Part shown: positions 8,660 through 43,883 of the stretch, in pieces
Position numbering within the stretch: the stretch's first letter is position 1
How the letters are laid out: every line of letters starts with the position of its first letter
Assembly: GCA_963664225.1 (NCBI GenBank)
Contig: OY760937.1
Span: 1,568,001-1,632,000, forward strand
Direction: 5' to 3'
DNA from: Verrucomicrobiia bacterium
GTDB taxonomy: Bacteria > Verrucomicrobiota > Verrucomicrobiia > Limisphaerales > UBA1319
DNA: 64,000 nt
Made by a program: the position numbers and the translations under genes
The notes under the pieces: generated by a model
Told to the model about the DNA's origin: nothing
Database searches by the model: none
Seen by the model: only the letters and a program-made list of their open reading frames with translations

Positions 8660-8714
8660 CCTCGGGTACGTTCAGCAAGATCGGGAAGAAATGGAAGTGC
8701 TCTTTACCTTTCTA

Positions 8715-29874: not shown

Positions 29875-30250
29875 CCTACATACATGGTATGTAGGGGCGA
29901 TTGCCCATCACGATTCCATTTTTCGGCTTAACCGCCGCACCACGACCTCCCCAACGTGTCGTCGGCTACCGCCCGACTTAACGCTTTTTCCCTACGGGCT
30001 TTCCGGCTAAAGGACATCTACCCGTTGTCCTTTATCAAAAATCGTTAAGTCGGCCGATAATCGCCGACACGTTGGGGGACTGGTTTTATAATAAGGGCTA
30101 TCGCCCAACCAACGTGCTCGTTATCACGACCGTTCACGCTGAAGCGTGGAGATTACGTGTTCGCGATTGCGAGATGACGCAAACGAGCAGTAGGAAAAAG
30201 CGTAGCCGCGAGAGCGGCCAAAACATAGCCACGCCGATAGGCGTGCCGAC
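29875..30250. other. Block of nested inverted repeats; candidate origin (oriT/sso) or structured RNA
   Basis: CCTACATAC-ATG-GTATGTAGG; CCCCAACGTGTCG/CGACACGTTGGGG enclosing CCGACTTAACG/CGTTAAGTCGG enclosing TAAAGGACA/TGTCCTTTA; further stems to about 30250. Confidence 0.6.
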
Positions 30251-30251
30251 A

Positions 30252-30279
30252 TTGCCCCAAACGGCAAATCTTGCCGTCT
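30252..30279 (+). promoter_or_regulatory. Element box 1 (TTGCC-N6-GGCAA)
   Basis: TTGCCCCAAACGGCAAATCTTGCCGTCT, TATCAT at 30301. Confidence 0.7.
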
Positions 30280-30314
30280 TCGCAAATAATTCCCACTGGC
30301 TATCATTGATCCAT

Positions 30315-30533
30315 ATGAAAAACACAAAAAACAAACAAGCGAACGGGTTCGGGAATTTTCAAACGAAGCAGATTAGAAAAATGGTGGTCAAGCCATTGAC
30401 CCAACTAATCACTGAAAAGACGAATAGTCTCCACAAAACAAGTCGAGAGTGTTTCGAGGAAATCAAAAAGGTCGAGCAAATGATCGAGATCATCGCCCGT
30501 CAAATGGGCCGGGATTTGATGGAGCACAAATGA
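30315..30533 (+). CDS. Small basic/helical hypothetical protein
   Basis: Starts just after box 1 and its -10; stop overlaps the next ATG (ATGA). Confidence 0.5.
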   Translation: MKNTKNKQANGFGNFQTKQIRKMVVKPLTQLITEKTNSLHKTSRECFEEIKKVEQMIEIIARQMGRDLMEHK

Positions 30534-31972
30534 TCCCGGGTTTGGATGATTCAAGTTCTTCGGGTTTCAAGACCAGCCGCCATTACCTCGTTGGCTCGCT
30601 CCCCACGCGTTTGCCAGCGGCTCAGGTTACGGTTTTACGCAGAGGAGTGGCGGCTGATCCTGGAATCATGCATGAAGAACAATCCATCATCATCGGACAC
30701 CGTCAGGTTTGGAGCGAAGAGCTGTCTTTTGGAATATCTGCAGTCGATCATCGCCATCATGTTTACATCATCGGGAAGACAGGCTCGGGTAAAACGACCC
30801 TGCTTCGTAATTTGCTGATCCAACACATTGCCTTGGGCCACGGCGTTGGACTCATCGATCCACATGGCGATCTGGCTGAGGAAATTCTCAACCATATTCC
30901 GCCATGGCGTGCCGATCAATTGGTGTATTTCAATCCGGGCGACATCGAGTTTCCAATTTCGATGAATTTACTGGCTCACGTTGCGCCTGATGCTCGGCAC
31001 CTTGTTGCTTCTGGGATCGTCGGGGCCTGCAAAAGCATTTGGTCCGACTCCTGGGGCCCGAGGCTCGAATATATTCTCTACAACGCCATCGCAGCTCTGC
31101 TCGATTGTCCCAATACCTCGCTTTTGGGTGTGAATCGAATGTTGATGGACGATTCATATCGCGCTTGGGTGATCCGGCAAATCAAAGATCCCTTCATTCG
31201 AGCATTCTGGGCGGAGGAATATGCCGGATATGACGAACGGTTCAGGCGCGAAGCCATTTCACCAATCCAGAACAAACTTGGACAATTCCTGTTGAATCCG
31301 GTGATCCGCAACATTTTGGGGCAAGTCAGATGCAGTGTGGATATTCCCTTCGTCATGGACAACCAGAGGATGTTCATCGCCAACCTATCGAAAGGTCGGC
31401 TGGGCCATGACAAAGCCAACCTCCTTGGATCCTTGCTCACGACTCAATTTCAACTGGGCGCAATGGCCCGAGTGAACCGTCCCGAAGACGAACGCCAGGA
31501 TTTTTACCTGTTCATCGACGAATTCCAGTCCTTCTCCACCGATGCGTTTGCTTCAATTCTGGCCGAAGCCCGTAAATACCGATTATGCCTCACCCTCTCG
31601 CATCAATACATTGACCAGCTTCCGCTTCCCATCCGCCAGGCGGTTTTTGGCAATGTGGGAACCCTGATTGCCTTTCGCATCGGCAATATCGATGCCGAGG
31701 TGATGGCCAAGGAGTTTGGAAACACATTTGCACCAAGCACGCTTGCCGACCTTGGCCGATATGAAGCGGTCGTGAAGTTGCTGGAAAATGGAACAAACCG
31801 GGAACCATTCCTCGGTAAGATGCTCGCACCACTCAAAAATTGCATTGGCCGGAAGGAAAAGCTCATCGCCCGTTCGCGCGAGCGTTTTGCCGCATCACGC
31901 TCGCGAATTGATGAAAAACTGAACCGGTGGATGGCTTCGGCGAAAACTCCATTACCGACTGACGAATCTTGA
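30530..31972 (+). CDS. VirD4/TraG-like coupling ATPase (short form)
   Basis: HVYIIGKTGSGKT, IDPHGDL, FYLFIDEFQ, EARKYRL, VFGNVGT; start may be 30530 or 30668. Confidence 0.88.
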   Translation: MIPGLDDSSSSGFKTSRHYLVGSLPTRLPAAQVTVLRRGVAADPGIMHEEQSIIIGHRQVWSEELSFGISAVDHRHHVYIIGKTGSGKTTLLRNLLIQHIALGHGVGLIDPHGDLAEEILNHIPPWRADQLVYFNPGDIEFPISMNLLAHVAPDARHLVASGIVGACKSIWSDSWGPRLEYILYNAIAALLDCPNTSLLGVNRMLMDDSYRAWVIRQIKDPFIRAFWAEEYAGYDERFRREAISPIQNKLGQFLLNPVIRNILGQVRCSVDIPFVMDNQRMFIANLSKGRLGHDKANLLGSLLTTQFQLGAMARVNRPEDERQDFYLFIDEFQSFSTDAFASILAEARKYRLCLTLSHQYIDQLPLPIRQAVFGNVGTLIAFRIGNIDAEVMAKEFGNTFAPSTLADLGRYEAVVKLLENGTNREPFLGKMLAPLKNCIGRKEKLIARSRERFAASRSRIDEKLNRWMASAKTPLPTDES

Positions 31973-32007
31973 AACAATCACCACTGGCTGGGTTCGTTCA
32001 TCCAAAC

Positions 32008-32035
32008 TTGCCCGAAAGCGCAAATCCTGTCGTCT
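32008..32035 (+). promoter_or_regulatory. Element box 2
   Basis: TTGCCCGAAAGCGCAAATCCTGTCGTCT (23/28 to box 1), TACGAT at 32058, ATG at 32070. Confidence 0.65.
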
Positions 32036-32069
32036 TCTTCCTTAGTTTGCCACCCGTTACGATGGACGG

Positions 32070-32975
32070 ATGGATTCCTCCCGTCTTCCCCGCTTCAAAC
32101 GCTCTTCCGTCGTTGCCCCCATGCAACTGACAGAACGCGACCGCGAAATCATCCGGCTCGTGGATCGGCATCGTTTTCTCCATTCTTCGCAGATCGTTGC
32201 ACTCATCGGCGGCAGTTCGCAGCAACTCTTGCGTCGATTGAAATTACTGTATCATCACGGCTTTTTGGAACGGCCACGCGCCCAGCTTGAATATTACCGC
32301 CAGAGCGGTTCTCATCACATCGTTTACGGCCTGGGAAACAAGGGTGGGACGCTTTTGAAGCAGGAGTTCGGGATTGCGCTTCGTCGAGTCTCTTGGGGTG
32401 AGAAGAACCGCGCCGTGGGCCGGATATTCCTTGAACATGCGCTTTTGGTTTCAGATGTGATGGTGACGATTGAACTGGCTTGCCGAAAGCGCGGTTTCCA
32501 GCTTTTGACCGAAAAGGAGCTTGCACCGCCTGACAAGAAACAGCCGTTCCGATGGAGGGTGAACATCAACAACCGCTTGCAACTCGGTATCATCCCCGAC
32601 CGCGTATTCGCCTTGGAGATTCCAGATGCGGACGGCAAACGTCAGCGCAGGTATTTCTTCCTTGAGGCCGACCGGGGCACCATGCCGGTCAAACGTCGAA
32701 ACCTTTCCCAAACCTCGTTTTACCGCAAGCTCATTGCATATGAAGCCACCTGGTCGCAAAACCTGCATCGCACTCGATTTGGTTTCAATCGTTTCCGCGT
32801 GATCACCGTCACCACGAGTGCGGGACGACGGAATTCTCTGGTGGAGGCCTGTTCGGAACTGGAGCGTGGCCGAGGCTTGTTCCTGTTTACCGACCATTCC
32901 ATTTTGTCCGATGATATATTTTCCTCTGCCTGGTTGACGGGCAATCCGGGTGGAACTGCCAGTTTGCTCGATTAG
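32070..32975 (+). CDS. Replication-relaxation (Replic_Relax) family protein
   Basis: LTERDREII...RRLKLLY..G.L winged helix; HALLVSDV; IPD...FLEADRGT...KLIAY PD-(D/E)xK-like core. Confidence 0.85.
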   Translation: MDSSRLPRFKRSSVVAPMQLTERDREIIRLVDRHRFLHSSQIVALIGGSSQQLLRRLKLLYHHGFLERPRAQLEYYRQSGSHHIVYGLGNKGGTLLKQEFGIALRRVSWGEKNRAVGRIFLEHALLVSDVMVTIELACRKRGFQLLTEKELAPPDKKQPFRWRVNINNRLQLGIIPDRVFALEIPDADGKRQRRYFFLEADRGTMPVKRRNLSQTSFYRKLIAYEATWSQNLHRTRFGFNRFRVITVTTSAGRRNSLVEACSELERGRGLFLFTDHSILSDDIFSSAWLTGNPGGTASLLD

Positions 32976-32980
32976 AAATC

Positions 32981-33008
32981 TTGCCCCAAACGGCAAATCT
33001 TGCCGTCT
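32981..33008 (+). promoter_or_regulatory. Element box 3
   Basis: 28/28 identical to box 1, TATGCT at 33032. Confidence 0.7.
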
Positions 33009-33106
33009 AGTGAAGTCATCGACAAGGGCGATATGCTTCTCTTGGAAGCGGTTCGGTTCTTGAGCCGCATTTGTTCTTCACAATTAATCATAACCAAGGA
33101 AATACC

Positions 33107-34126
33107 ATGCCAAAATCATCGTTTGTTGACTTCAAGGCCGTCAAGGAGGCCATCACCATGGAGCAGGTGCTCGGACATTACAACCTGCTCGATCAGTTCA
33201 AGCGGAGCGGAGACAGCCTGAGTGGTCCATGTCCGATCCACAAAGGCACCAATCCGACACAATTCCGGGTCAGTATCAGCAAAAACATCTGGAACTGTTT
33301 CAGCGAATGCAAACACGGGGGCAACACCCTCGACTTCATCTCCCGGATGGACAATGTGAGCGTCCACGCGGCGGCCTTAAACGCCATCGAATGGTTTCAC
33401 CTTGATCCCGCAGCCGTGTCGATGGATTCCCCAAAGGAAGCCGGAGCTGAGCATGAAGACCCGAAGACTCACGATGTTCCCCGACCGACGCCAGTCACAA
33501 AGACAGCGCCGGTCCTGGAAAACAGCGCGCCGAACAAGCCGTTGAAGTTCCGGTTGGAAAAACTGGAACGCGAAAATCCCTACCTTGTCGAACGCGGTCT
33601 CACGCCGGAAACCATTGCAGATTTCGACATAGGGTACTGCGCCAAAGGCATGATGGCGGAACGGATCGCCATTCCCATCCGCAACGTGAACGGAGAGGTG
33701 GTGGCATATGCGGGACGCTGGCCTGGAATGCCAGCCGAAGGTAATCCCAAATACAAGTTGCCCCAGGGATTCAGGAAATCACTAGAGCTGTTCAACTTTG
33801 ACCGAGCCATAAAAGAATCAGGGCCGCTGGTTATTGTCGAAGGCTTCTTTGGCTGTATGAAACTTCACCAGCTCGGTTGCCGCAAGGTGGCCGCCCTCAT
33901 GGGCAGCACCCTCTCCACCGCGCAGGAGGAGTTGATTCGCACTCACACCGACCACAACAGCCAAGTCATCGTCATGCTCGATGAGGACGAGGCGGGAAGG
34001 GCGGGACGTGAGGACATGGCCGTTCGTCTGGCCAAGTTCGTTTTTGTGAAGGTTCACACCTTCGGCAAGGACGGACAGCAACCGGATGACTTGAGCGCCG
34101 AGGAAGTGACAATGTTGTTAACCTGA
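33107..34126 (+). CDS. DnaG-like primase (CHC2 zinc finger plus Toprim)
   Basis: CPIH...WNCFSEC, YLVERGL, YAGR, PKY, IVEGFF, LDEDEAG. Confidence 0.9.
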   Translation: MPKSSFVDFKAVKEAITMEQVLGHYNLLDQFKRSGDSLSGPCPIHKGTNPTQFRVSISKNIWNCFSECKHGGNTLDFISRMDNVSVHAAALNAIEWFHLDPAAVSMDSPKEAGAEHEDPKTHDVPRPTPVTKTAPVLENSAPNKPLKFRLEKLERENPYLVERGLTPETIADFDIGYCAKGMMAERIAIPIRNVNGEVVAYAGRWPGMPAEGNPKYKLPQGFRKSLELFNFDRAIKESGPLVIVEGFFGCMKLHQLGCRKVAALMGSTLSTAQEELIRTHTDHNSQVIVMLDEDEAGRAGREDMAVRLAKFVFVKVHTFGKDGQQPDDLSAEEVTMLLT

Positions 34127-34138
34127 AAGGAGACCACC

Positions 34139-34468
34139 ATGGATGTTCATTGTTCCACCTGTGGCGAGCCATGGGATACATTTCATCTCTGGCACGAAGC
34201 CATATTCGAGACGGGATTGAGTTTTGAGGAAGCCGAAGCCTGGCGCTTTCTTCCCCGCTCTCTAAAACTAAACGACCGTTACCGGAAGGAATTTCGGGCA
34301 GTCGGCTGGGAATTCGGGCAAACGGTGATCAACGTCATTCATTGCCCGTGTTGTCCCAAGGATGCAAAACCCAACCCTGAGGCTGTAAAAACCAAGGCAG
34401 TCCTTGAACAGCTTTTGGGCAACGACCAGGATGGATTGGCTGCGACCTTTGAGGATCATCACCTATGA
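34139..34468 (+). CDS. Hypothetical zinc-binding protein
   Basis: CSTCGEPWD...CPCCP; GGAG RBS. Confidence 0.7.
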   Translation: MDVHCSTCGEPWDTFHLWHEAIFETGLSFEEAEAWRFLPRSLKLNDRYRKEFRAVGWEFGQTVINVIHCPCCPKDAKPNPEAVKTKAVLEQLLGNDQDGLAATFEDHHL

Positions 34469-34752
34469 AAGCAGCCACCAATTGCATCGCTAGGTTCCCT
34501 CTTGGCCAACTCATGGTAACATCCAATGCCCTCAAATACTTGACCCTGAATGAAATCATTTCCGGTGTCATTCGCCATCAATTGGGCGATTGGGGTGAGT
34601 TGAACAGTGACGACCGAATGGAGAACGATCTGAACATCGAAAGGGGGTTGATTCTCATATCGGTTTATCACGACAGCAATGACATGGCATTCTTTGTCAT
34701 TACCGAGGCGGATCGGTCCGTCACAACGGTCTTGATGCCGACCGATTATTAA
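34465..34752 (+). CDS. Conserved plasmid/ICE hypothetical protein
   Basis: FPLGQL..T...RH..GDWGEL..DD...ND...ITEADRSVTTVLMPTDY signature. Confidence 0.8.
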   Translation: MKAATNCIARFPLGQLMVTSNALKYLTLNEIISGVIRHQLGDWGELNSDDRMENDLNIERGLILISVYHDSNDMAFFVITEADRSVTTVLMPTDY

Positions 34753-34756
34753 TCAC

Positions 34757-34786
34757 AAGAGCGATTCACGCGAATCGCTCTTTTTC
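34757..34786 (+). terminator. Rho-independent terminator
   Basis: AAGAGCGATTC-ACGC-GAATCGCTCTT followed by Ts. Confidence 0.8.
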
Positions 34787-34814
34787 TTGCCCCATCAGGC
34801 AAAGAGAGCCGTCT
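34787..34814 (+). promoter_or_regulatory. Element box 4
   Basis: TTGCCCCATCAGGCAAAGAGAGCCGTCT (21/28 to box 1), TACGCT at 34837. Confidence 0.65.
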
Positions 34815-34894
34815 TTGGCGAAACAGCCGCATGCCATACGCTACAGAGTGGGTTCAAATGGTTCTTTTAAAATCAACAACCACAGGAAGATATC

Positions 34895-35746
34895 ATGAAT
34901 TATCAAGCGTATGAACGGATCACCGAGCGCATCACTGCCTTGCTTCTGCAAGGCACGGTGCCCTGGCACAAACCATGGAAGGCAACAACCAGTTGGCCGC
35001 GAAATGGCGTTTCCCAAAAACCATATCGCGGCATCAATGTCTTTTTGCTTTTAACCATGAGTTACGAGTCCCCCATCTGGCTCACTTACCGTCAGGCCTT
35101 GCAGCTTGGCGGCTCTGTCCGCAAGGGTGAGAAATCCTGTCCCGTTGTCTTTTGGAAACCCCTGAAGATTGCGGACAAGACATCGGGCGAAGAAAGGCAA
35201 ATCCCTTTGCTACGCCTCTATCACGTCTTCAACGTCGCCCAATGTGACGGCTTGAAAGACTCACCACCCGTGACAAACGAAATTGTCGCGTCCAAACCGG
35301 CGGAGATTGTGGCAGCGATGCCTCAACCGCCCGCCATCAAACACGGCATGAACTCCGCCTTCTATTCACCCCAGGAGGATTGCGTTGGAATGCCTTTACG
35401 CGAACGGTTCGAGAACGAGAATGGCTATTTTGCCACCTTGTTCCATGAGCTCGTTCATTCGACCGGCCACGAAAAGCGGTTGAACCGGGCAACGCTCGCC
35501 GAAAACAATGGATTCGGTTCCGATCCATACTGCAAGGAGGAATTGATTGCGGAAATGGGGGCGGCGTTTCTTTGCGGCCAGGCCGAGATTGTCGAGCGGA
35601 CGATTGATAGCTCCGCCGCTTATATCCAGAACTGGCTTCAGCGCCTGAAGCAAGACAAGAGCCTGATTGTGCAGGCTGCAGCGCAGGCACAGAAAGCCGT
35701 TGACTTCATTCTTGGCCGGACGGAAAGCGAGGTATTCCATGACTGA
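34895..35746 (+). CDS. ardC: ArdC-like ssDNA-binding antirestriction protein with zincin domain
   Basis: PWHKPW, YRGIN, W.TY.QA..LGG.VRKGEK, VFNVAQ, HELVHSTGH, EELIAE. Confidence 0.9.
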   Translation: MNYQAYERITERITALLLQGTVPWHKPWKATTSWPRNGVSQKPYRGINVFLLLTMSYESPIWLTYRQALQLGGSVRKGEKSCPVVFWKPLKIADKTSGEERQIPLLRLYHVFNVAQCDGLKDSPPVTNEIVASKPAEIVAAMPQPPAIKHGMNSAFYSPQEDCVGMPLRERFENENGYFATLFHELVHSTGHEKRLNRATLAENNGFGSDPYCKEELIAEMGAAFLCGQAEIVERTIDSSAAYIQNWLQRLKQDKSLIVQAAAQAQKAVDFILGRTESEVFHD

Positions 35747-35972
35747 ATTGGAAAAAGCAGTCAGACGACGCACCCGTCTGCCCTTTGCCCACTATCGCAA
35801 ACGCATCGTGGTCATCCTTGAACCGGGTGACTGTGTGACCATGCGATTGGAACGGACGCGCACTGTGTTTCGCGCCCCCATCTCGGCATTGTATCGGCAG
35901 ATGGTGGAGTGGCACGTTGCCGCGATCCAGCGCGAGAAACAGCGGGAGCGAAAACAAAGGAGGACCGTATGA
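35739..35972 (+). CDS. Small basic hypothetical protein
   Basis: GAGG RBS; overlaps the ardC end and the radC start. Confidence 0.6.
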   Translation: MTELEKAVRRRTRLPFAHYRKRIVVILEPGDCVTMRLERTRTVFRAPISALYRQMVEWHVAAIQREKQRERKQRRTV

Positions 35973-36430
35973 AAGACTTCAATCCGAAGGAGTTCAAGCT
36001 CGTCGCACTGCGTGAATGTCCGACACCCGAACAGATGCAGGTCTGCGATACACCGGAAAAGGCAGTCGAATATTGGACAGCACATATTGGCAATTCGGCC
36101 CAATTCAACCAAGAATGTGAAAGTTTCTTCGTGTTAGTCCTGAACACGCGGAGACGTGTCAGAGGCCATCACTTGGTTTCAACGGGCACGATGGATACCA
36201 TTCTGGTCCATCCGAGAGAAGTCTTCCGCATTGCCATTATCGCCGGAGCATCCGCTGTCGTGCTCATGCACAATCACCCGTCGGGTGAACCGCAGCCGTC
36301 CGAGGCGGATATCAAAGTGACTCGCGATTTAATTCGCGCCGGTGAGTTGGTTAAAATTGAGGTGCTTGATCACGTTATCGTGGGCAATCCAAACCATTGC
36401 TCATTACGCGAGCTTGGCTATTTTTACTAG
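35969..36430 (+). CDS. radC: RadC-like JAB domain protein
   Basis: VHPREVF, HNHPSGEPQPSEAD, VLDHVIVG. Confidence 0.92.
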   Translation: MKDFNPKEFKLVALRECPTPEQMQVCDTPEKAVEYWTAHIGNSAQFNQECESFFVLVLNTRRRVRGHHLVSTGTMDTILVHPREVFRIAIIAGASAVVLMHNHPSGEPQPSEADIKVTRDLIRAGELVKIEVLDHVIVGNPNHCSLRELGYFY

Positions 36431-36443
36431 CTAAAGCCATCCA

Positions 36444-36474
36444 AACCCCGTCCATTTTTAGGCCGGGGTTTTTC
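36444..36474 (+). terminator. Probable terminator after radC
   Basis: AAACCCCG...CGGGGTTT plus T run. Confidence 0.6.
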
Positions 36475-37131: not shown

Positions 37132-37149
37132 ATCAGGGGAAGGACGATT

Positions 37150-37872
37150 ATGTTTTCATTCTTTCGTAAAAAGGCCGATGTATTGAGCCACTGGTACGTT
37201 TTGGTGGAAAACTTTAAGCTTTCATCCCAAGACTTTTATAACGAAATCGAAACTGCATTGAAGGAACGTGAGGTGCCGGGGCTTGGCTTTTCTAAGGTTG
37301 AGTTTTCCGAAGGTGGCCTCCTTTCAGCCAATCGCATCTATCTTCGCATGGTCCGGGAACGGCTGGTTTTTGATGTCTGCGCCGCTCCCTTTGGCACCGG
37401 CTTTTTCTTCTCTTGCCGATTTGCTGAGATTCCCGCTGTGATTACTGTCTGGCAACTCATTGTCGTATTCGCGGGCCTGTTTTTAGGCGCGATCCTTTCC
37501 TTTTTTATTCTAAGCAAACTCTTAGGAGTGTTGGGTTTAGTGCTCTTCCCATTTGCTTTAATCGTCGGCCTCTTTCTCATGATTTACGTCATGAGAAACG
37601 CTGTGTCCATGGGGCTTAGAGATTTGGATGCCTCCTTAATTAAGTCCCCCGTGCTTGGTCCGATCTACGAAAACTGGTTTCGCAAGGAAACATATTATCG
37701 CCACGACACCCGTCTCATGTATTGCGATACGGTGAATTCCATTGTGAAGACAAGAGTGGAGGAAACCACGGGCTCGAAAGGAATAAAATTGGTTCGTTTT
37801 AACGAATTCAATCCCGTTCTGAGCGACCTTTACAAACCGACCATCGTGGCCTTGCCCAAGGAACCCTCCTGA
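37150..37872 (+). CDS. Hypothetical membrane protein (2 TM hairpin between soluble parts)
   Basis: AGGA RBS; central hydrophobic pair; 6 bp before the large ATPase. Confidence 0.75.
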   Translation: MFSFFRKKADVLSHWYVLVENFKLSSQDFYNEIETALKEREVPGLGFSKVEFSEGGLLSANRIYLRMVRERLVFDVCAAPFGTGFFFSCRFAEIPAVITVWQLIVVFAGLFLGAILSFFILSKLLGVLGLVLFPFALIVGLFLMIYVMRNAVSMGLRDLDASLIKSPVLGPIYENWFRKETYYRHDTRLMYCDTVNSIVKTRVEETTGSKGIKLVRFNEFNPVLSDLYKPTIVALPKEPS

Positions 37873-37878
37873 CGTCAT

Positions 37879-40800
37879 ATGTCCCGGCTCGACGAGCAAT
37901 TGAGCGAACGGTTCCACCTCTGGGAACTGCGCGGACGTGGCTGGCAGGTCTTTCCCGAACCGGTGTATCCCGAGCCGCCTTTTACCCCGTTTCTCGGCCA
38001 TTATCTCCCCGATACCCCGCCAGTTGATGACGGAGCCAGGCCAACCTTTTTGAGTTCGCTGGTGCGGAAACTGAGCCGCACGTTAAGCACCGAGACTCCA
38101 CCGATTGCGGTTGCGCCCGAGCCCGAAATTGAACCGGAGCCAACGCCCCTCATTCGTGAATCGCTTGTGGAATTGCAGGCATCCCTCCCGGACAAACTCG
38201 ACATCTCCAAGGATGCTTTTGAACAGTTCCTTTTGAATCTGTCCCTCTGTCGCGAACCCATTGCCTTTGAACTGCTTGGCACGCACAAAAAAGTCACAAC
38301 CCAATTCGTCGCCGGTGCAACTGACGCCCCGCTCCTCCGCCGACAGTTGCAGGCATATTTTCCTGAAGCCGTCTTTGTCTCCCGTGAAGGTGGCTTGGAA
38401 CAGGCTTTGAATGCAAGCCAGGGCGACGAGGTTTTAGCGGTGGAGTTTGGCCTTAAAGAAGAATTCATGCTGCCTTTGGCAAGCGGCAAGCTTGATCCAT
38501 TCATCGGCATCGTGGGTGCCTTGGCTGAGTTGCAGCCCGGAGAACTCGGACTTTTCCAAGTCCTGTTTCAACCGGTGCAGCATCCCTGGGCGGAAAGCAT
38601 CCTGTATTCCGTGACTCACGCGGACGGCAAACCGTATTTCATCAATTCTCCAGAACTGGCAGGGGCAGCCAATGCCAAGGTTGCCCGTCCCCTTTACGCT
38701 GCCGTTGTCCGCATCCTGCTTCGCACCGGGGACTATGATCGTTTGCTCCAATTAGCCCGTGATCTGGCCGGATCATTGCGCGTATTCGCGCACCCCAGCG
38801 GCAACGAACTCATCCCGCTTCACAATGATGATTACCCTTTCGAGGACCACATTGAAGACGTGCTTCGTCGTCAGACGCACAGGACAGGCATGCTACTCAA
38901 CACCGACGAACTCATCGGCTTTGTCCACCTGCCATCAAGCGCCGTCCGTTCACCGGTCTTTGAGCGGCAAGCGGTCAAATCCAAGGCGGCACCGGCCATT
39001 ACCCGGCAACAAGGGCTATTGCTTGGTCATAACGACCATGCCGGCCAGACGGTTGAAGTCAGGTTGTCCGCTGAACAGCGCACCCGGCATACGCATATCA
39101 TCGGTGCCAGCGGCACAGGCAAGTCCACACTGCTTTTCAATCTCATCCGGCAGGACATTGAGAACGGTGAAGGCGTGGCCGTCCTTGATCCTCACGGGGA
39201 CTTGATAGACCGGATTTGTGGCATCATTCCGCCGGAGCGGATTTGCGACGTGGTGTTGCTTGATCCTTCGGACGAATCAAATTCGGTTGGATTCAATATC
39301 CTGTCGGCTCACAGCGATCTTGAGAAAAACCTGCTGGCCTCTGACTTGGTTGCCGTGTTCCAACGCCTCTCGTCTTCATGGGGCGACCAGATGAACAGCG
39401 TGCTCTCAAACGCCATTCTCGCGTTTCTGGAAAGCGACCGGCGTGGCACCATCGCTGATTTGCGCCGGTTCCTCATTGAAACGCCGTTTCGGAATGAGTT
39501 CCTCAAATCAGTGAAGGATTCCGAGATCGTATATTACTGGCAGAAAAGTTTTCCGCATCTCTCCGGCAACAAATCCATCGGTTCCATCCTGACCCGCTTG
39601 GACACCTTTCTGGCCCAAAAGCCCATCCGGCTCATGGTCTCACAGCCAGAGAACCGGCTGGACTTCGCGCATATCATGGACAGCGGGAAAATCTTCCTGG
39701 CCAAATTGCCAGAGGGATTGCTTGGCCGGGAAAATTCGTATCTGCTTGGCACCCTCCTCGTGTCCAAGTTCCAGCAGATTGCCATGAGTCGCCAGGCCCA
39801 ACAGATCGCCGCGCGCCGCGACTACTGGCTCTATATCGACGAGTTTGCCAATTTCATCACGCCCTCAATGGCGGAGATATTGTCGGGAGCACGCAAGTAT
39901 AGGATTGGGCTTACGTTGGCCCATCACGAATTACACCAGTTACAGAGGAATCCCGAAGTTGCCAGTGCTGTCATGTCGCATCCCTACACCCGCATCGTGT
40001 TCCGGGTTGGCGACGACGATGCCAAAAAACTGGCCGAGGGATTCTCATATTTCGAGGCCAGGGATTTGCGGAACTTGGAGGCCGGGCAGGCCATTGTTCG
40101 CGTGGAACGCAGCGATTTTGATTTCAATTTGTCGGTCCCGCTTCCAGTCGAGCCAGACAGGGACACAGCCATCCTCAGACGACAGGAAATCATTACCGTT
40201 TCAAGAAAAACGTACGGCACACCACGCGCCGACGTTGAGGCGATGTTCGCAAAATCGCATGAGAGTAAGACAACGATTGAACCCTCCATTGAAGCCCCTG
40301 CGCCAGCACCGACCAAGCCGGTCGCCAAAACACCGAAAGCGACCATAATTCCAGAGGCAGCAGCAGCGCCACCGCCCCCTGTTGTGATCCAGCCGCCACC
40401 AGTTACGGAAAAACCGAAAGCGATGGCATCGCCAGTCAAGGTTGAGACCCAACCTCCGGTTGTTAACCGTCCACAGGAAACACGCGATCTGGGCCGGGGC
40501 GGAGCGCAGCATCAGGCCATACAGAAACGCATCAAAGAGGCGGCGGAGAAACTTGGTTTCCGCAGCGTCATTGAAAAACCGATTCTCGGTGGTCAGGGCA
40601 GTATCGATTTGTGGCTGGAACGCCCTGGCCAAACCATCGCCTGCGAAGTTTCCATTTCCACCACCATTGACCATGAGGTTGGCAATGTCGCGAAAGGTCT
40701 GAAGGCTGGAGTCCTCAACGTGGCGGTAATTTGCCTGGATGAAGAGCGTTTGCGGAAGATCGAGGCGGCGGTTTCCGGCAGTCTTGGCCCTGAACTCGCG

Positions 40801-41025
40801 GCACAAGTGGTGTATTTCCAGCCCGATTCGTTTATCGCCCATTTGAAATCGTTACCGCTGCCGGTCCCCAAGGATTCCACAACCATTCGTCGGGGGTATA
40901 AAATACGACGCTCGGCACCGGCGCTTACCGCCGAGGAACAAAAGCAACGCGAAGACCTGGCCAATCAAATGATGGCCGAGGCTATGCAGCAGAAGCGCAA
41001 GGCTCATTCAAAGAAGATTCAATAA
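37879..41025 (+). CDS. Large VirD4/TraD-like ATPase with Pro-rich linker and C-terminal restriction-endonuclease-like domain
   Basis: HTHIIGASGTGKS, LDPHGDL, LYIDEF, ARKYRIG; C-terminal GRGGAQHQ...IDLWLE...IACEVS. Confidence 0.85.
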   Translation: MSRLDEQLSERFHLWELRGRGWQVFPEPVYPEPPFTPFLGHYLPDTPPVDDGARPTFLSSLVRKLSRTLSTETPPIAVAPEPEIEPEPTPLIRESLVELQASLPDKLDISKDAFEQFLLNLSLCREPIAFELLGTHKKVTTQFVAGATDAPLLRRQLQAYFPEAVFVSREGGLEQALNASQGDEVLAVEFGLKEEFMLPLASGKLDPFIGIVGALAELQPGELGLFQVLFQPVQHPWAESILYSVTHADGKPYFINSPELAGAANAKVARPLYAAVVRILLRTGDYDRLLQLARDLAGSLRVFAHPSGNELIPLHNDDYPFEDHIEDVLRRQTHRTGMLLNTDELIGFVHLPSSAVRSPVFERQAVKSKAAPAITRQQGLLLGHNDHAGQTVEVRLSAEQRTRHTHIIGASGTGKSTLLFNLIRQDIENGEGVAVLDPHGDLIDRICGIIPPERICDVVLLDPSDESNSVGFNILSAHSDLEKNLLASDLVAVFQRLSSSWGDQMNSVLSNAILAFLESDRRGTIADLRRFLIETPFRNEFLKSVKDSEIVYYWQKSFPHLSGNKSIGSILTRLDTFLAQKPIRLMVSQPENRLDFAHIMDSGKIFLAKLPEGLLGRENSYLLGTLLVSKFQQIAMSRQAQQIAARRDYWLYIDEFANFITPSMAEILSGARKYRIGLTLAHHELHQLQRNPEVASAVMSHPYTRIVFRVGDDDAKKLAEGFSYFEARDLRNLEAGQAIVRVERSDFDFNLSVPLPVEPDRDTAILRRQEIITVSRKTYGTPRADVEAMFAKSHESKTTIEPSIEAPAPAPTKPVAKTPKATIIPEAAAAPPPPVVIQPPPVTEKPKAMASPVKVETQPPVVNRPQETRDLGRGGAQHQAIQKRIKEAAEKLGFRSVIEKPILGGQGSIDLWLERPGQTIACEVSISTTIDHEVGNVAKGLKAGVLNVAVICLDEERLRKIEAAVSGSLGPELAAQVVYFQPDSFIAHLKSLPLPVPKDSTTIRRGYKIRRSAPALTAEEQKQREDLANQMMAEAMQQKRKAHSKKIQ

Positions 41026-41452
41026 AGGCTGCAAAATCTTGATTTTGCAGCAGTTTGACTGAGGTCCAAACTGCGTTTGGAATGGGCAGGGAGAAAAACA
41101 TTTTCACATCCCGTCGCAAGCCGTCCTGTTTGGCCAGAAGTTCGTCCTGAATGGCTTCATGCACACTGTTTGTGTGGGAAATGACCATGGTGACGAACAA
41201 CTTTTCCTCTGGCGTGACGGGCTGGCTTTCCAAATCCACTGACGGATCGAGTACGCGGGCCAGTTTTGGTTGATGGAGGAATTCTTTCCATACATCACGG
41301 TAATTAGCGGTGATGGCCAGGAGATTGGCAATTCGACGGGTCTTGGTTTCCGAATGAAGTGAGACAGCCGTAAACAAAAGGCTGCCGACAATGCCGACTG
41401 TGCTTAATAGATCGAACCAATTTTGAACAACCCATTGTCCCATGTCCCCCAT
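40982..41452 (-). CDS. Membrane-anchored helical protein (DUF6082/DUF4760-like)
   Basis: N-terminal TM (LLSTVGIVGSLLFTAVSL) then helical domain; 3' end overlaps the ATPase stop convergently. Confidence 0.65.
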   Translation of the reverse strand: MGDMGQWVVQNWFDLLSTVGIVGSLLFTAVSLHSETKTRRIANLLAITANYRDVWKEFLHQPKLARVLDPSVDLESQPVTPEEKLFVTMVISHTNSVHEAIQDELLAKQDGLRRDVKMFFSLPIPNAVWTSVKLLQNQDFAAFIESSLNEPCASAA

Positions 41453-41477
41453 TTTAGCATATGGGGGCCAGGAAACG

Positions 41478-41723
41478 CTATGGACGGTCGGGGATATCGT
41501 GCTTGGCGTTGACCAAGAGATTGCGCGGCAACCGGATGATTCGTTCATCGGGACCACAGCCCGCCGTTCGTGGCAATTTGGCGATGGCAGCAGCCGTGAT
41601 GTCGATACCGATCACTGCGAAATCGCCATTTTCAAGTTCCCAAATATCTGGGCAACCCCAGCAGCCAACCGTTTGGGCACCGTTGGCATGAGGGTCTGGG
41701 CCAATGCGTTTCTTAAAGTTCAT
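41478..41723 (-). CDS. Small conserved hypothetical protein
   Basis: GGAGG RBS; GCPDIWELENGDFAVIG...CGPDERII. Confidence 0.75.
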   Translation of the reverse strand: MNFKKRIGPDPHANGAQTVGCWGCPDIWELENGDFAVIGIDITAAAIAKLPRTAGCGPDERIIRLPRNLLVNAKHDIPDRP

Positions 41724-41733
41724 ACCTCCACTA

Positions 41734-41753
41734 TACTTGACTATAGTAAAGTA
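41734..41753. promoter_or_regulatory. Palindromic operator between divergent genes
   Basis: TACTTGACTATAGTAAAGTA, one mismatched pair. Confidence 0.6.
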
Positions 41754-41786
41754 ACTGTCAAGCCGCATTTTGGATAAAGTTCAAAT

Positions 41787-42044
41787 GTGCCAAAAATCGG
41801 CCATTACGAAGCCGTCAGTGCGGAGATCATTCGCCTTTTGCGTGAGGAGCGCGAAACGCGCAAGATCACGAACTATATGGTCGCGCAGAAATCCGGCGTT
41901 TCTGAATCCATGTTAAGCCTTGTGGATCGAGGACTTCGGAATCCTTCCATGGAAATCATTTTACGGATCGCTGATGCCGTCGAAGCAGATCTTCCTGCCT
42001 TGATCAAAAAAGCCCATACCACCGTTTCGAGCAAAGAAAAGTGA
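41787..42044 (+). CDS. XRE-family HTH regulator
   Basis: LLREERE...VAQKSGVSESMLSLVDRGLRNPSMEIILRIADA. Confidence 0.85.
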   Translation: MPKIGHYEAVSAEIIRLLREERETRKITNYMVAQKSGVSESMLSLVDRGLRNPSMEIILRIADAVEADLPALIKKAHTTVSSKEK

Positions 42045-42073
42045 GCTGTTTTCAGATCGAATCGCTCTACGTT

Positions 42074-42298
42074 TCAATTTGGAATAACGGGCCTGACGTT
42101 TTGGCATCTGAACATTTCAATGATCTTGATGCGCAGTTTGGTGAGGCTCAAAAACGGATATTCCTCAGCTTGATGAATGGCGCTCTTGGTAACACCCAGT
42201 TGCCGTGCAACTTCTGCTTTAGATATGCGCGCCTGTATTCGGGCTGCCTTTGCCAAGGATGCCAGTTCATTCTCTTCCAACAATCGTTTTTGCCGCAC
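42074..42298 (-). CDS. Small HTH protein divergent from the recombinase
   Basis: GTG start; AKAARIQARISKAEVARQLGVTKSAIHQAE. Confidence 0.55.
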   Translation of the reverse strand: MRQKRLLEENELASLAKAARIQARISKAEVARQLGVTKSAIHQAEEYPFLSLTKLRIKIIEMFRCQNVRPVIPN

Positions 42299-42380
42299 GA
42301 ACCGATTCAACCACAATGGGTAACGCGAGGAAATGCTATTCTCTTGAAACGAGATTGGCTTTTCAATATGAAGTAGTGCT

Positions 42381-43883
42381 ATGAAGGACCATAGTGCCTT
42401 GAATAAACCGGTGGGCATCTGGATTCGCGTTTCCACAGAGGATCAAGCCCAAGGTGAGAGCCCGCAACATCACGAGTCTCGTGCCAGAGAATACGCCAAA
42501 TTCAACGACTGGTCGGTGAAAGAGGTTTACAATCTCGCGGGCGTCTCAGGCAAGACGGTCATGGAGCATCCCGAAGCCAAACGAATGCTCGCTGATATAA
42601 AGCGAGGCCACATCACCGGCCTCATTTTTTCCAAACTCGCCCGTCTGGCAAGAAACACCAGGGAGCTCTTGGATTTCGCTGATTTCTTCCGTGAGCAGCA
42701 TGCCGATATGATCTCGATCCAAGAAAAGATCGATACGAGCACCCCTGCCGGTCGCCTTTTTTACACAATGATCGCCGCTCTCTCTCAGTGGGAACGGGAA
42801 GAAATTGCGGATCGGGTCAAAGCATCAATCAAAACGCGAGCTAAACTTGGGAAAAGTTTGGGTGGCCCTGCCCCATTTGGTTATATGTGGAAGAATAACA
42901 GGCTCATTCCTGATCCTGCCGAAGTGCCAATCCGCAAACTCATGTATGAACTCTTTGCGGAACAGAAACGTCTTAAAGGCGTCGCTCGCCACTTGAACCA
43001 ATCTGGTTATAGAACCAGAAAAGGTGCCCACTTCACGGATACGACCGTTCTGCGACTCATCCAAGACTCAACCGCCAAAGGAATATATCGGGCAAACCAC
43101 ACTTACAGGGACAACAAGGGTAAACTCCGTACAAAACCTGAATCCGATTGGATTCAAACACCTGTAGAACCAATCATTTCAATAGAGCTTTGGGATCAAT
43201 GCAATGAATTGCTGGAAAAGCGCAAAACCATGCGTCCCCTTGGCCCTAAACCAGTCCACCTTTTTGCTGGTCTTCTGTATTGTGGCTGCGGTCAGAAAAT
43301 GTATGTGTTTTCGCGTACGCTAAAATACATCTGCCACAAATGCCGCAACAAGATCCCCATGGAAGACATTGAGGCAATTTTCCGGGAGGAGCTTGAAGAT
43401 TTCTTTGTATCAAAAGAAAAAATCACAGCTCACTTGGCGAGTGGCAACGTTCACCTTGCCGACAAGAAAGAGCGGCTGATGGTCCATGAACGACAATTGG
43501 AAAAGATCAGAGTGGAAATGCGCAAAGTTTACCAACTCTACCAAAATGATCAAATTGACCCCGAAGGCTTCGGAAAACTGTATCGCCCATTGGAAGACCA
43601 AGAACGATCGCTTGGTATTGAATTAGCGAAATTACAGGGCGAGCTGGCAGCCCTCCAAATGCACCAATTGTCTGCCGACGAAGTGATCACCGAAGCCATC
43701 GATCTTCACCGACAATGGCCAAAGTTCACTCAAAATGAAAAACGCCGAATCATCGAAAGTATCACTGAAAAGATTGTAGTGAGCGGCGACGAAATAAACA
43801 TAACCCTCTGCTATATGCCATCTTGTGAAGAACTCACAAAAAGGCAACGAAACCTCTGGGATTCATCGCCGCAATCAGCATGA
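42381..43883 (+). CDS. Large serine recombinase (integrase)
   Basis: WIRVSTEDQ catalytic Ser, SGK, RLARN, recombinase domain (APFGY), zinc ribbon (LYCGCG...YICHKC), coiled coil. Confidence 0.95.

Follow-up and report, generated by a model that had tools for sequence, protein, structure and literature searches.

A conserved 14-kb mobile-element backbone inserted in comM encodes two coupling-type ATPases and a MOB_C-type relaxase candidate

We analysed a 64,000-nt stretch of the genome of a Verrucomicrobiia bacterium (the window) and find that positions 29,871-43,883 are the conserved 14-kb backbone of an integrating mobile-element family. Here, a composite island interrupts the competence gene comM, and the backbone makes up the right end of that island. 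Performing an ORF and Pfam scan, we found all the genes named in an earlier note on this DNA, and its left coordinate, 29,875, matches the start of DNA similarity to the related loci L017 and L026 (29,871-29,875). The core of "about 14 kb" described there stands as the backbone but not as the whole element, because a cargo arm and the other half of comM lie outside the window. That reading was made without the comM split. The N-terminal 358 codons of comM (43,834-44,910, minus strand; ChlI 8e-44, Mg_chelatase 3.7e-73) end after ..AAMNP, and the Pfam Mg_chelatase match spans profile positions 1-158 of 207 only. The C-terminal domain, PF13335, occurs once in the genome, at genome 44,607-44,900 on the plus strand. 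Reading the sequence, we located the right attachment-site half, GGCAACG plus 8 nt, at 43,843-43,857, directly next to the comM codons that encode ..AAMNP. Its counterpart (CGTTGCC..) lies beyond the window, at genome 44,430-44,447. The cargo arm and the remaining half of comM are 1.57 Mb distant in the assembly, across an inversion between 14.5-kb inverted repeats. This arm carries a type I-C CRISPR-Cas system and Gabija-like genes (an OLD-type and UvrD pair). A Bryobacteraceae element has an attachment-site and comM layout identical to that of the island.

The backbone starts with a conserved non-coding region (29,871-30,109, plus strand; DNA similarity and fold), whose identity from 29,871/29,875 on is 84% to L017 and 75% to L026. 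It contains an inverted repeat with 41-nt arms (29,949-29,989 and 30,037-30,077) that are 85% complementary. The single-stranded DNA fold has -39.6 kcal/mol (z -6.8), which was equalled by 0 of 200 shuffles. Similar inverted repeats lie 5′ of the first ATPase gene, A1, in L017, L026 and L042, and both-sided changes occur at 9 of the 45 predicted pairs, as judged from four sequences only. The region had no Rfam match. Judged by these features, the 130-nt hairpin upstream of A1 is a candidate oriT.

A1 (30,449-31,972, plus strand) is a soluble coupling-type ATPase of 507 aa with TrwB_AAD_bind (7.2e-10) and TraG-D_C (0.0031) matches. It also matches the NCBIfam profile SXT_TraD at 6.1e-11, far under that profile's cut-off, and hydropathy gave no membrane helix. 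The adjoining gene (32,070-32,975, plus strand; PF13814 6.5e-24) encodes a MOB_C-type relaxase candidate, Replic_Relax, with a winged HTH and a PD-(D/E)xK domain. The match of its N-terminal part to wHTH regulators is weak (E 0.019), and the protein matches phrog_9381, "replication initiation by nicking", at 1.3e-10. Seven residues (H123, P176, D177, E199, D201, K220 and Y224) are the same in all 14 sequences compared, whose identity goes down to 24%. The earlier note had singled out this protein as standing in place of an HUH relaxase. Its presence is not unusual, since PF13814 is the MobC profile of CONJscan and represents the known MOB_C relaxase superfamily (PMC5357655).

Next in the same orientation are a DnaG-type primase (33,071-34,126; Zn_ribbon_DnaG 2.3e-13, DNAG_N, Toprim_2, TIGR01391 6.7e-42), two small conserved genes of 109 and 95 aa with a 4-nt overlap (34,139-34,752), an ArdC-type antirestriction protein (34,895-35,746; ArdcN 2.4e-32, MPTase-PolyVal 7.5e-38) and a RadC-like JAB-domain protein (35,909-36,430; RadC 1.6e-38), all on the plus strand. 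For the two small genes, with clusters in 5 and 11 of 80 sources, respectively, searches of Pfam, NCBIfam, PADLOC and PHROGs gave no family. Two small membrane proteins follow on the plus strand, as had been noted. The first (36,598-37,131), of 177 aa, has four predicted helices (hydropathy peaks 52-70, 94-112, 118-136 and 148-166) and no family in the same four collections; it is a variable member of the set, its cluster being present in 8 of 80 sources. The second (37,150-37,872), of 240 aa, is predicted to have 2-3 helices and carries soluble N- and C-parts that flank a membrane hairpin, which is absent from the Bacteroidota and Desulforudis versions. It has no Pfam family. Its cluster is present in 64 of 80 sources, every time directly 5′ of the second ATPase gene, A2, and here its stop is 7 nt 5′ of the A2 start. 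R62, Y64, S88 and D186 are invariant in 55 sequences.

A2 (37,879-41,025, plus strand; TrwB_AAD_bind 1.7e-13) is a three-part ATPase of 1048 aa. Residues 1-385 are PF26449 (DUF8128), residues ~390-790 form the coupling-type motor, and residues ~870-960 form a PD-(D/E)xK nuclease-like (restriction-enzyme-like) domain. The two outer domains had escaped the earlier note. Across 46 A2 sequences, the Walker A and B residues show no variation, and neither do H878, E899, D910 and E933. The predicted model of the N-domain (pLDDT 87.8) aligned with TrwK/VirB4 residues 33-423 at Z 15.0-15.4 (rmsd 3.5-4.0, 241-249 residues aligned), while the next-best fold reached Z 8.2. Going by the model, the A2 N-domain shares its fold with the N-terminal domain of VirB4, so A2 may replace the signature mating-pair ATPase. 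The description of the locus as two VirD4-like ATPases without mating-pair genes is thus too simple. For the C-domain model (pLDDT 91.3), the top Foldseek matches were all restriction-endonuclease-fold nucleases, at E 1.3e-3 and weaker.

We also predicted the complex of the 240-aa protein with the A2 N-domain. The median score was 0.34 (runs 0.50, 0.34 and 0.28), compared to 0.00 for the best of three controls, with at least 50% of contacts in agreement between runs and a partner pLDDT of at least 66. Of 157 solved complexes, 116 pass the mark for such predictions, as do 2 of 215 mismatched pairs; at scores of 0.60 or less, it is passed by only 18 of the 157, plus both of these mismatches. These models lend weak support to binding of the A2 N-domain by the 240-aa protein.

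The right end of the backbone holds a conserved small gene on the minus strand (40,982-41,557; cluster in 7 of 80 sources), with no Pfam, PADLOC or PHROGs family, and an 85-aa Cro/C1-type HTH regulator (41,787-42,044, plus strand; HTH_3 7.8e-08) that matches a TrbA-like profile at 1.2e-09, under the cut-off. A second small HTH regulator (42,074-42,436, minus strand; HTH_31 0.0004) is divergent from the integrase gene; its cluster is found in 16 of 80 sources, invariably on the minus strand between A2 and the integrase. Since its homologues have ~78 aa, the true start is probably near 42,31x. The plus-strand ORF at 42,041-42,376 is probably spurious, as the conserved gene there is this HTH gene. 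The large serine recombinase (42,381-43,883, plus strand; Resolvase 4e-33, Recombinase 1.3e-19, Zn_ribbon_recom 2.4e-4; cluster in 54 of 80 sources) serves as integrase, and its final codons extend into comM-derived DNA.

A1 and A2 are paralogues, as previously proposed, with 32% identity over 448 residues (E 3e-65). In a quick tree that left out L025, A1 (23 rows) and A2 (46 rows) were parted by one branch with an SH-aLRT of 100, and their sub-clades were mirrored, which indicates that the pair is old and jointly inherited. Catalytic residues are retained in A1, A2 and the relaxase. Counts across related loci show that the gene set is conserved. Where at least 8 kb are available upstream of A2 (47 loci), the 240-aa gene is present in 43, an A1-type paralogue in 19, the primase in 19 and the relaxase in 13; where at least 2.5 kb are available downstream of A2 (63 loci), 47 have a serine integrase, and a tyrosine integrase is joined to the family in a few loci. 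We found 2843 related proteins at E ≤ 0.001, the best 120 of which have 73-100% identity, and 186 relatives among genome contigs. They come from at least eight phyla, including Verrucomicrobiota, Acidobacteriota, Bacteroidota, Sumerlaeota, Planctomycetota, Pseudomonadota, Bacillota and candidate phyla. The family is widespread and unstudied, and we found no published description of the A2 family.

In agreement with the earlier note, a Pfam scan of 20 proteins at 23.6-48 kb gave no match to VirB4, VirB6, pilin or phage structural families. A full T4SS in the remaining island, beyond the window, was not found either: the 23 ORFs scanned at genome 9.5-44.4 kb gave no T4SS family. VirB6, VirB8, pilins and the outer-membrane core have no counterpart in the element. 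The closed 5.78-Mb host genome has no VirB4 by PF03135, PF12846 or TIGR00929. Across 151 sampled genomes of the host's order, 31 of which carry A1/A2-type genes, PF03135 matched none, PF12846 gave P-loop-only matches, and TIGR00929 at E ≤ 1e-8 matched 8, none above the cut-off, including 2 of the 31 carriers; divergent or plasmid-borne helpers may be lost from such MAGs.

The missing mating-channel genes suggest that DNA may pass between cells by a stripped-down route. As the most likely reading we tentatively propose, with a probability of about 45%, a reduced conjugation-type transfer module in which A2 takes the place of VirB4. The serine integrase would excise the island as a circle, and the relaxase would bind and nick the hairpin upstream of A1. 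A1 would pass the DNA to A2, which may be held at the inner membrane via its VirB4-like N-domain and the 240-aa partner and would pump the DNA out. Primase, ArdC and RadC would then aid establishment in the new cell, where the integrase would insert the DNA into comM. The grouping of relaxase, coupling-type ATPase, primase, ArdC and RadC in one co-oriented block headed by a strong, conserved hairpin speaks for such a module, as do the predicted N-domain fold with the small membrane-protein gene directly 5′ of it, the old A1/A2 pair with its catalytic residues, the mobile and widespread family, and a helper that is hard to find in host genome and order. Against it, the relaxase is not universal, and the complete 43-kb Bryobacteraceae element yielded no relaxase family. 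The A2 motor is by sequence closer to coupling proteins than to VirB4 (conju_CD1115 6e-11 and SXT_TraD 3.9e-9 versus VirB4_CagE 0.002), and its PDB matches are TrwB and DotL. A distant A2-like gene on a 24.7-kb B. subtilis plasmid adjoins a replication-relaxation gene and lies alongside a distinct Tcp-type set, which includes a large ATPase; the product of the A2-like gene looks like a coupling protein, not VirB4. Verrucomicrobiota are double-membraned, yet no envelope-spanning component named above was recognised.

The main rival, which we regard as rather unlikely, is a mobilisable hitch-hiker (IME) with its own integrase, relaxase, oriT and coupling ATPase(s) that borrows the channel of a co-resident conjugative element, as in CloDF13 and streptococcal class-8 IMEs. 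The lack of mating-pair families in backbone and island fits, and so does the Bacillus plasmid, where the A2-like gene next to the relaxase works beside a separate T4SS. PMC5357655 describes an IME class with serine integrase, MOB_C relaxase and VirD4-type coupling protein, and in PMC3357382 the usual neighbour of the CloDF13 MobC relaxase gene is a translocase acting as coupling protein. However, neither the closed host genome nor the order offers a clear VirB4, and a pure hitch-hiker has no use for a second motor that has a VirB4-like N-domain and a dedicated membrane partner. Hosts of the same backbone also differ greatly in their envelopes, including Bacillota and candidate-phyla bacteria, so a single coupling protein would need to match many different channels.

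It is improbable that A2 and its membrane partner, perhaps with A1, are instead an ATPase-nuclease module for defence, exclusion or competition, a fixed passenger like MAD7-MAD8 of the MADS defence system, which is described as such a module in PMC13662399. A1 and A2 do match PADLOC mad8 (1.6e-16 and 9.5e-19, over positions 4-287 of 314), which also counts against a transfer role; A2 has a conserved nuclease-fold domain, and the rest of the island is defence-rich. But no further MADS gene was found by PADLOC among 10 proteins scanned, and A2 co-descends with A1, the neighbour of the relaxase. Within the family, no part is more constant than the A2 module, which has a fixed place beside the integrase and outside the variable cargo, and the modelled N-domain has a secretion-ATPase fold. 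Most improbable, in our view, is that the genes replicate and segregate an excised, plasmid-like form, in the manner of the "DNA translocation operon" known from Bacillus phages. In that case, a Replic_Relax nick would start rolling-circle replication with priming by the primase, the ATPases would move or partition DNA intracellularly, and spread would occur via other routes such as transformation or vesicles. According to PMC3357382, phage 0305phi8-36 has a MobC-type relaxase, a VirD4-like ATPase without N-terminal membrane domain and membrane anchors, whose deletion caused no laboratory growth defect. The phrog_9381 match of Replic_Relax, matches of A2 and A1 to phrog_5156 (4.1e-62 and 4.4e-54) and A2-like genes in 16 Bacillus phage records point the same way. 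Of 86 plasmids with distant matches, 80 were typed non-mobilizable, but this MOB-suite typing overlooks Tcp-type genes visible in at least one of the 86. The roles of ArdC and RadC are better suited to DNA that arrives in a new cell than to replication in the resident one, and near-identical backbones (73-86% protein identity) over many contigs and several phyla need an efficient intercellular route.

Left of the backbone, the GC profile shows a non-conserved low-GC (0.41-0.45) stretch (25,992-29,870), which is probably cargo; it had no DNA or protein similarity in 79 related loci. Its 565-aa gene (27,148-28,845, minus strand), with a hydrophobic N-terminus, matched no family of Pfam, NCBIfam, PADLOC or PHROGs. 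Close to both element ends is a 13-nt stretch, TGCCATCTTGTGA. Second copies of the 109-aa and 95-aa genes, 91% and 78% identical, are located at genome 397.9-398.6 kb.

Performing ORF, Pfam, NCBIfam and hydropathy analyses, we find that the + strand at 29,871-43,883 carries a single block of co-oriented genes, and this block is the backbone of a mobile-element family. It encodes a 507-aa ATPase (A1, 30449-31972; TrwB_AAD_bind and TraG-D_C), a Replic_Relax protein (32070-32975; PF13814, 6.5e-24, scoring 85.5 bits where the cut-off is 25.3), a primase of the DnaG type, two small genes with no function assigned, ArdC, RadC, two predicted membrane proteins, one of 177 aa with four helices and one of 240 aa with a hairpin (37150-37872), a 1048-aa ATPase (A2, 37879-41025; TrwB_AAD_bind and DUF87), small regulators and a 500-aa large serine recombinase (Resolvase 4e-33, Recombinase 1.3e-19, zinc ribbon 2.4e-4). 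The earlier note had described this block, its left boundary and the paralogy of its two ATPases. All of its parts are present, the DNA similarity to the nearest relatives begins at 29,871-29,875, exactly where the boundary had been placed, and A1 and A2 share 32% identity across 448 residues (E 3e-65). Intact ORFs throughout and retained catalytic residues rule out a dead remnant. A phage was also rejected, as no structural or packaging family was found and the sole terminase match (phrog_2666 against A2 residues 393-441) covers only the P-loop. An Rfam search of 25,500-45,000 returned no match at E <= 1.

Database searches find 2843 relatives of A2 (E <= 0.001); in the best 120, identity is 73-100% over 94-100% of the length. 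A relative is encoded in 186 of 246 candidate stretches from one-genome-per-species contigs. We retained 79 loci for comparison, from Verrucomicrobiota, Acidobacteriota, Bacteroidota, Sumerlaeota, Planctomycetota, Pseudomonadota, Bacillota and candidate phyla; with the window, they gave 80 sources for ORF clustering. The 240-aa gene recurs in 64 of the 80 sources and the serine integrase in 54, followed by the primase (22), a small - strand HTH gene (16), the relaxase (15), RadC (12) and ArdC (10). In the 47 loci that extend at least 8 kb upstream of A2, the 240-aa gene is present in 43, an A1-type paralogue and the primase in 19 each and the relaxase in 13; of the 63 loci reaching at least 2.5 kb downstream, 47 have the serine integrase. 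Besides the window, L017, L026, L028, L041, L042 and L044 show the order A1 - relaxase - primase - ... - 240-aa gene - A2 - integrase, and L038, L054, L055, L062 and L065 a compact A1 - 240-aa gene - A2 - integrase set. The earlier note had allowed that the gene set might not be conserved; its clusters and order recur across the related loci.

Some members carry a tyrosine integrase near A2, replacing or adding to the serine integrase (L021, L028, L034 and L064; also L023, L032, L056 and L081), indicating that the transfer module has joined differing integration modules. In seven loci (L041, L042, L044, L050, L052, L057 and L064), a protein of about 800 aa, with 5-6 N-terminal membrane helices followed by a large domain, is encoded directly upstream of the 240-aa gene, at the place of the 177-aa protein. 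This protein of the Prosthecobacter-type loci is a candidate channel component, and the four-helix 177-aa protein is another candidate.

The accessible text on CONJscan assigns PF13814 to the MOB_C relaxase superfamily (PMC5357655), and we regard the Replic_Relax protein, from its sequence, as a putative MOB_C-type relaxase. Residues P176-D177, E199-x-D201 and K220 are invariant in 14 sequences, and residues 17-107 weakly match wHTH regulators. Upstream of A1, an inverted repeat with 41-nt arms (29,949-30,077) has a predicted fold far superior to that of shuffled sequences (z -6.8). A similar repeat precedes A1 in L017, L026 and, more diverged, L042, with some compensatory changes; nhmmer with the hairpin profile recovered only the three sequences used to build it. 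We infer that this hairpin is a candidate oriT.

The motif TTGCC-N6-GCAA(A) has five + strand copies, at 30252, 32008, 32981, 34787 and 35785, each in a spacer and 35-200 nt ahead of a gene (A1, the relaxase, the primase, ArdC and RadC, respectively). Two of the five sit within an identical 28-mer, and elsewhere one copy precedes the relaxase in L010 and one the primase in L029. The five copies are probably a common operator or promoter element. The looser intergenic motif TTGCCN6GGCAA showed no enrichment over the whole window (6 matches against 4.1 expected) and was found in just 5 of 96 loci, once each; it stands out solely by its clustering. A 565-aa protein, hydrophobic at its N-terminus, is encoded in the low-GC stretch that borders the backbone on the left (27148-28845, - strand). 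It matched nothing in Pfam, NCBIfam, PADLOC or PHROGs, and nothing in the 79 related loci or the rest of the genome.

Residues 1-385 of A2 correspond to DUF8128 (PF26449, a name obtained from an Atlas search), and we found no paper naming this domain. The predicted structure of the N-domain (pLDDT 87.8) matches residues 33-423 of TrwK/VirB4 of R388 with Z 15.0-15.4 and an rmsd of 3.5-4.0 Å over 241-249 residues; among other folds, the next Z was 8.2, and flavoenzyme domains stayed below 7. Thus, on the modelled structure, the N-domain has the VirB4 N-terminal fold. A sequence link to VirB4 was not detected, as PF03135 gave no match in the N-domain and the domain profile hit no PDB chain at E <= 10. 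Across the backbone, neither PF03135 nor PF12846 matched, and TIGR00929 scored 16.4 bits on A2 against a cut-off of 643. The A2 motor is nearest to coupling proteins by profile, with TrwB and DotL as the best PDB sequence hits. PF10412 scored 38.7 bits on A1 and 50.7 bits on A2 (cut-off 20.5), and the Walker residues are invariant; every score of the NCBIfam T4CP models on A1 and A2 lay far under its cut-off. Neither ATPase has a hydrophobic segment that could form the N-terminal transmembrane domain typical of type IV coupling proteins.

The modelled C-domain of A2 (pLDDT 91.3) matched solely restriction-endonuclease-fold nucleases (AF1548, NucS, the R2 endonuclease domain, Can2 and Hjc; E 1.3e-3 or weaker), and H878, E899, D910 and E933 are invariant in 46 sequences. 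A specific kinship of this domain with the relaxase was ruled out (hhalign probability 1.7%). Judged from these models, A2 unites three parts in one protein: an N-domain of the VirB4 fold, a motor of the coupling type and a nuclease. Predicted complexes weakly support binding of the A2 N-domain to the 240-aa protein, with a median score of 0.34 against 0.00 for the best control; of 157 solved complexes, 116 reach the mark for such scores, as do 2 of 215 mismatches, and with scores of 0.60 or less only 18 of the 157 solved complexes reach it, together with both passing mismatches. The central membrane hairpin of the partner is absent in Bacteroidota and Desulforudis.

A quick maximum-likelihood tree of the motor domains, excluding the truncated L025, parted A1 (23 rows) and A2 (46 rows) by a single branch (SH-aLRT 100), with sub-clades that mirror one another. 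This topology indicates that the duplication is older than the spread over phyla and that the two genes have travelled together.

The backbone forms the right end of an island inserted in comM. The integrase gene reads into a comM gene cut after ..AAMNP (43834-44910, - strand), and the genome's only Mg_chelatase_C domain (5.78 Mb, single contig) lies at genome 44,607-44,900 on the opposite strand, 1.57 Mb from the window. The two comM junctions bear complementary half sites, GGCAACG plus 8 nt at window 43,843-43,857 and CGTTGCC.. at genome 44,430-44,447, a layout identical in a Bryobacteraceae relative. The integrase thus stands at the element end with target-site halves on both sides, the ends being 1.57 Mb apart in the assembly. 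The comM gene is interrupted at the identical codon in 12 of the 79 loci. In the Bryobacteraceae MAG, the two comM halves are on the same contig, 43 kb apart, and the element has, besides A1 - 232-aa gene - A2 and a primase, an M23 peptidase, a further serine recombinase and genes for type I restriction. The 34 of its ORFs that were scanned, each of at least 100 aa, gave no relaxase or T4SS family.

Window 11,467-25,991 is an inverted copy, 99.7-99.9% identical, of genome 5,778,330..5,783,426 plus 1..9,461, spanning the contig start. This 14.5-kb duplicate contains an RND efflux pump gene, a squalene-hopene cyclase and other chromosomal-looking genes; an extra 470 bp (window 10999-11468) is just 90% identical to genome 10192-10661. 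The two copies flank the 1.57 Mb and part the two halves of the comM island. Either a true inversion accompanied by gene conversion or a choice made in the assembly would account for this arrangement. Recombination between the repeats would restore a single island of about 67 kb, in the order comM-C, 35-kb arm, 14.5-kb repeat, window 25,992-43,857 and comM-N. Beside the distant comM half lie genes for multi-HTH and RuvC-like proteins homologous to genes of the complete Bryobacteraceae element (E 2e-12 and 5e-29). Window 26582-26949 and genome 12602-12969 share 368 bp at 81% identity, including the 3' end of the distant arm's 493-aa serine recombinase gene; in the un-inverted order they would be direct repeats flanking the 14.5-kb repeat, and the stretch may be the relic end of another integrated element. 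In the comM C-terminal fragment (genome 44,355-44,927), SRSP...ESRS stands for the CRCG...ECRC of the Bryobacteraceae comM, all four cysteines of a presumed metal-binding motif being replaced by serines. This may be decay after the split or a lineage trait.

In the distant arm (genome 9.5-44.4 kb; loci L003 and L005) lie two more genes for large serine recombinases, of 493 and 613 aa, a Gabija-like pair made up of an OLD-type ATPase-TOPRIM gene and a UvrD helicase gene that an IS66 transposase separates, and a type I-C cas3-cas5-cas8c-cas7-cas4-cas1 set with an array of 51 repeats at 32,979-36,618. RuvC-like, 1105-aa HAD-like and MBL-fold proteins are also encoded there. The 50 CRISPR spacers of the island gave a single chance-level 17-nt match against the 79 loci and the genome. 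The earlier note had left room for a full T4SS beyond the window; the 23 ORFs scanned in the distant arm include no T4SS family. Among the 20 + 23 proteins scanned in the two island arms, we found no VirB6, VirB8, pilin or other type-specific channel gene. Pfam and NCBIfam profiles detect no mating-pair genes of the element's own, yet the A2 N-domain has the modelled VirB4 fold.

Comparing the backbone with known systems, we find the closest layout in MOB_C modules. According to the available text, streptococcal IME_Class_8 combines a serine integrase, Rel_PF13814/MobC and a VirD4-type coupling protein (PMC5357655). As far as the accessible accounts go, such modules (CloDF13 MobB-MobC, IME_Class_8) resemble the backbone in having a Replic_Relax/MOB_C relaxase beside a coupling-type ATPase, a serine integrase and a compact layout in which profiles recognise no mating-pair genes (PMC5357655, PMC3357382). 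In contrast to them, A1 has no membrane domain, and a second, far larger paralogue, A2, carries additional N- and C-domains and comes with a membrane partner of its own; the hosts, double-membraned bacteria from the environment, belong to an order in which canonical VirB4 was not found in 151 sampled genomes. The family is best filed as a variant of conjugative or mobilisable integrative elements, with MOB_C-type DNA processing and an unusual two-motor set.

VirB4 itself (TrwK of R388; 7o43, 7o42, 8rtb, 8rtd) has the same two-part build in the models, an N-domain of the same fold followed by a RecA-type motor. The virB3 gene lies directly upstream of virB4, and a small membrane-protein gene likewise directly precedes A2. 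Unlike VirB4, A2 has a motor nearer to TrwB, TraD and VirD4 by profile, adds a C-terminal nuclease-fold domain and has no VirB6, VirB8 or VirB10 partners. A1/A2 may also be compared with single-translocase DNA transfer systems (TraB in actinomycete integrative elements, TdtA in Thermus ICETh1 and archaeal Ced), in which one motor of the FtsK/HerA/VirD4 superfamily works with few or no channel proteins. These systems are not known to have a relaxase and belong to separate branches of the ATPase superfamily, with faint NCBIfam CedD and CedB matches on A1 (2.4e-6 and 0.0028).

The 'DNA translocation operon' of Bacillus phages 0305phi8-36 and SPO1, laboratory-dispensable in the available text of Pathria et al. 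2012, has a MobC-type relaxase adjoining a VirD4-like ATPase, separate membrane anchors and no T4SS (PMC3357382). The phage ATPase is described there as having no N-terminal membrane helices and an N-domain with no detectable homologue (PMC3357382). The phages differ in being lytic or temperate and in having a single ATPase, with no nuclease tail reported in that text. Phage G and PBC1 are among the 16 Bacillus phage records with A2-like genes (22-25% identity over 30-47% of A2). Distant ones occur in 86 plasmid records, none covering 80% of A2 and 80 of them typed non-mobilizable. In Bacillus plasmids (e.g. NZ_CP032854.1), an A2-like DUF87 ATPase is encoded directly upstream of a Replic_Relax gene; the B. 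subtilis plasmid protein matches A2 residues 263-743 at 24% identity and looks like a coupling protein. In contrast to the backbone, the plasmid has no integrase and encodes TcpE-like, 'conjugal transfer' and separate 848-aa ATP-binding proteins, which indicate a full Gram-positive-type channel.

A self-transmissible ICE is recognized by CONJscan from a relaxase, a T4CP, VirB4 and type-specific MPF genes. We favour a reduced self-transfer machine, at a probability of about 0.45. Against it stand the absence of the relaxase from much of the family, the lack of any component for the outer membrane and the coexistence of the Bacillus plasmid gene with a full channel. In a bolder form, a self-sufficient minimal DNA-transfer system would serve double-membraned, single-membraned and candidate-phyla hosts, the hybrid A2 motor supplanting the multi-protein T4SS, one small partner anchoring it and the soluble paralogue feeding it; we consider this unlikely. 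Such a minimal machine might only export donor DNA, to be imported by the recipient's own uptake machinery.

Helper-dependent mobilisation, which would share the layout of the MOB_C modules, is the main rival and less likely. In the host genome (96% complete, one contig), PF03135 and PF12846 gave no match, and TIGR00929 gave only P-loop-level matches. Sampling 151 genomes of the order, each at least 90% complete, we found A1/A2-type matches (E <= 1e-30) in 31, at least 22 of them with a near full-length A2. PF03135 matched in none of the 151; PF12846 matches were limited to profile positions ~17-70, mainly in ORFs of about 900 aa. TIGR00929 reached E <= 1e-8 in 8 of the 151 genomes, two of which (G028 and G053) are among the 31 carriers, and never exceeded its cut-off. 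As these genomes are a sample and for the most part MAGs, plasmid-borne helpers could be missed. A defence or exclusion module is quite unlikely. A1 and A2 match the PADLOC mad8 profile of MADS, in which, by the accessible text, MAD7-MAD8 is an ATPase-nuclease module (PMC13662399). Of the eight-gene mad1-mad8 operon, only mad8 matched among 10 proteins scanned; unlike in MADS, the ATPase and nuclease are fused in A2, with a VirB4-fold N-domain added, in the fixed backbone of a mobile element. A replication or segregation set is slightly less likely still.

Searching the literature for DUF8128, Replic_Relax, comM/serine recombinase elements and VirB4 N-domain/nuclease fusions, we found no description of this family. 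Genome surveys detect conjugative and mobilisable elements by relaxase, coupling protein and VirB4 profiles; the A1/A2 family would score "mobilisable" or escape such detection. It is common: within one verrucomicrobial order, 31 of the 151 genomes sampled carry it, and its hosts in soil, peat and freshwater belong to at least eight phyla. The family occurs where canonical VirB4 was not found, with defence islands as cargo, here CRISPR-Cas and Gabija-like genes. If the two-motor module transfers DNA without a classical channel, the known routes of horizontal transfer in poorly studied phyla would be broader, and the evolutionary link between VirB4 and coupling proteins would be testable within one system. 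If the self-sufficient form were true, the comM insertion would also protect the element against removal by transformation, and A1/A2 would be a living example of how duplication of a VirB4-like ancestor, together with loss of its N-domain, can give rise to a coupling protein.

Checking assembled contigs of public sequencing runs, we find one contig each in runs X1 and X3, which may be the source sample, that spans 34,270-44,887 with zero differences and thereby shows the right junction in its integrated form. The contigs, which cannot reveal rare circles, contained no clean excision joint at the attachment site; a 43,889-to-44,652 joint was present (depth 3.1, side 22). A 29,654-to-41,680 joint matches a second element near genome 378-381 kb. 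In runs X4 and X5, short contigs match backbone pieces (window 29886-42010) at 0-1 differences, with sparse coverage over most of the stretch; this element, or one very close to it, seems to be present in further samples from the same two studies. The second related element (genome 374-400 kb) is without A2. It carries an A1-like ATPase with 51% identity (374,269-375,516), an additional Replic_Relax gene (379,735-380,328, - strand), a primase-like gene and another distant ATPase (391.8-392.8 kb). ArdC (66%) is also encoded there, and the 109-aa and 95-aa genes have counterparts at 91% and 78% identity.
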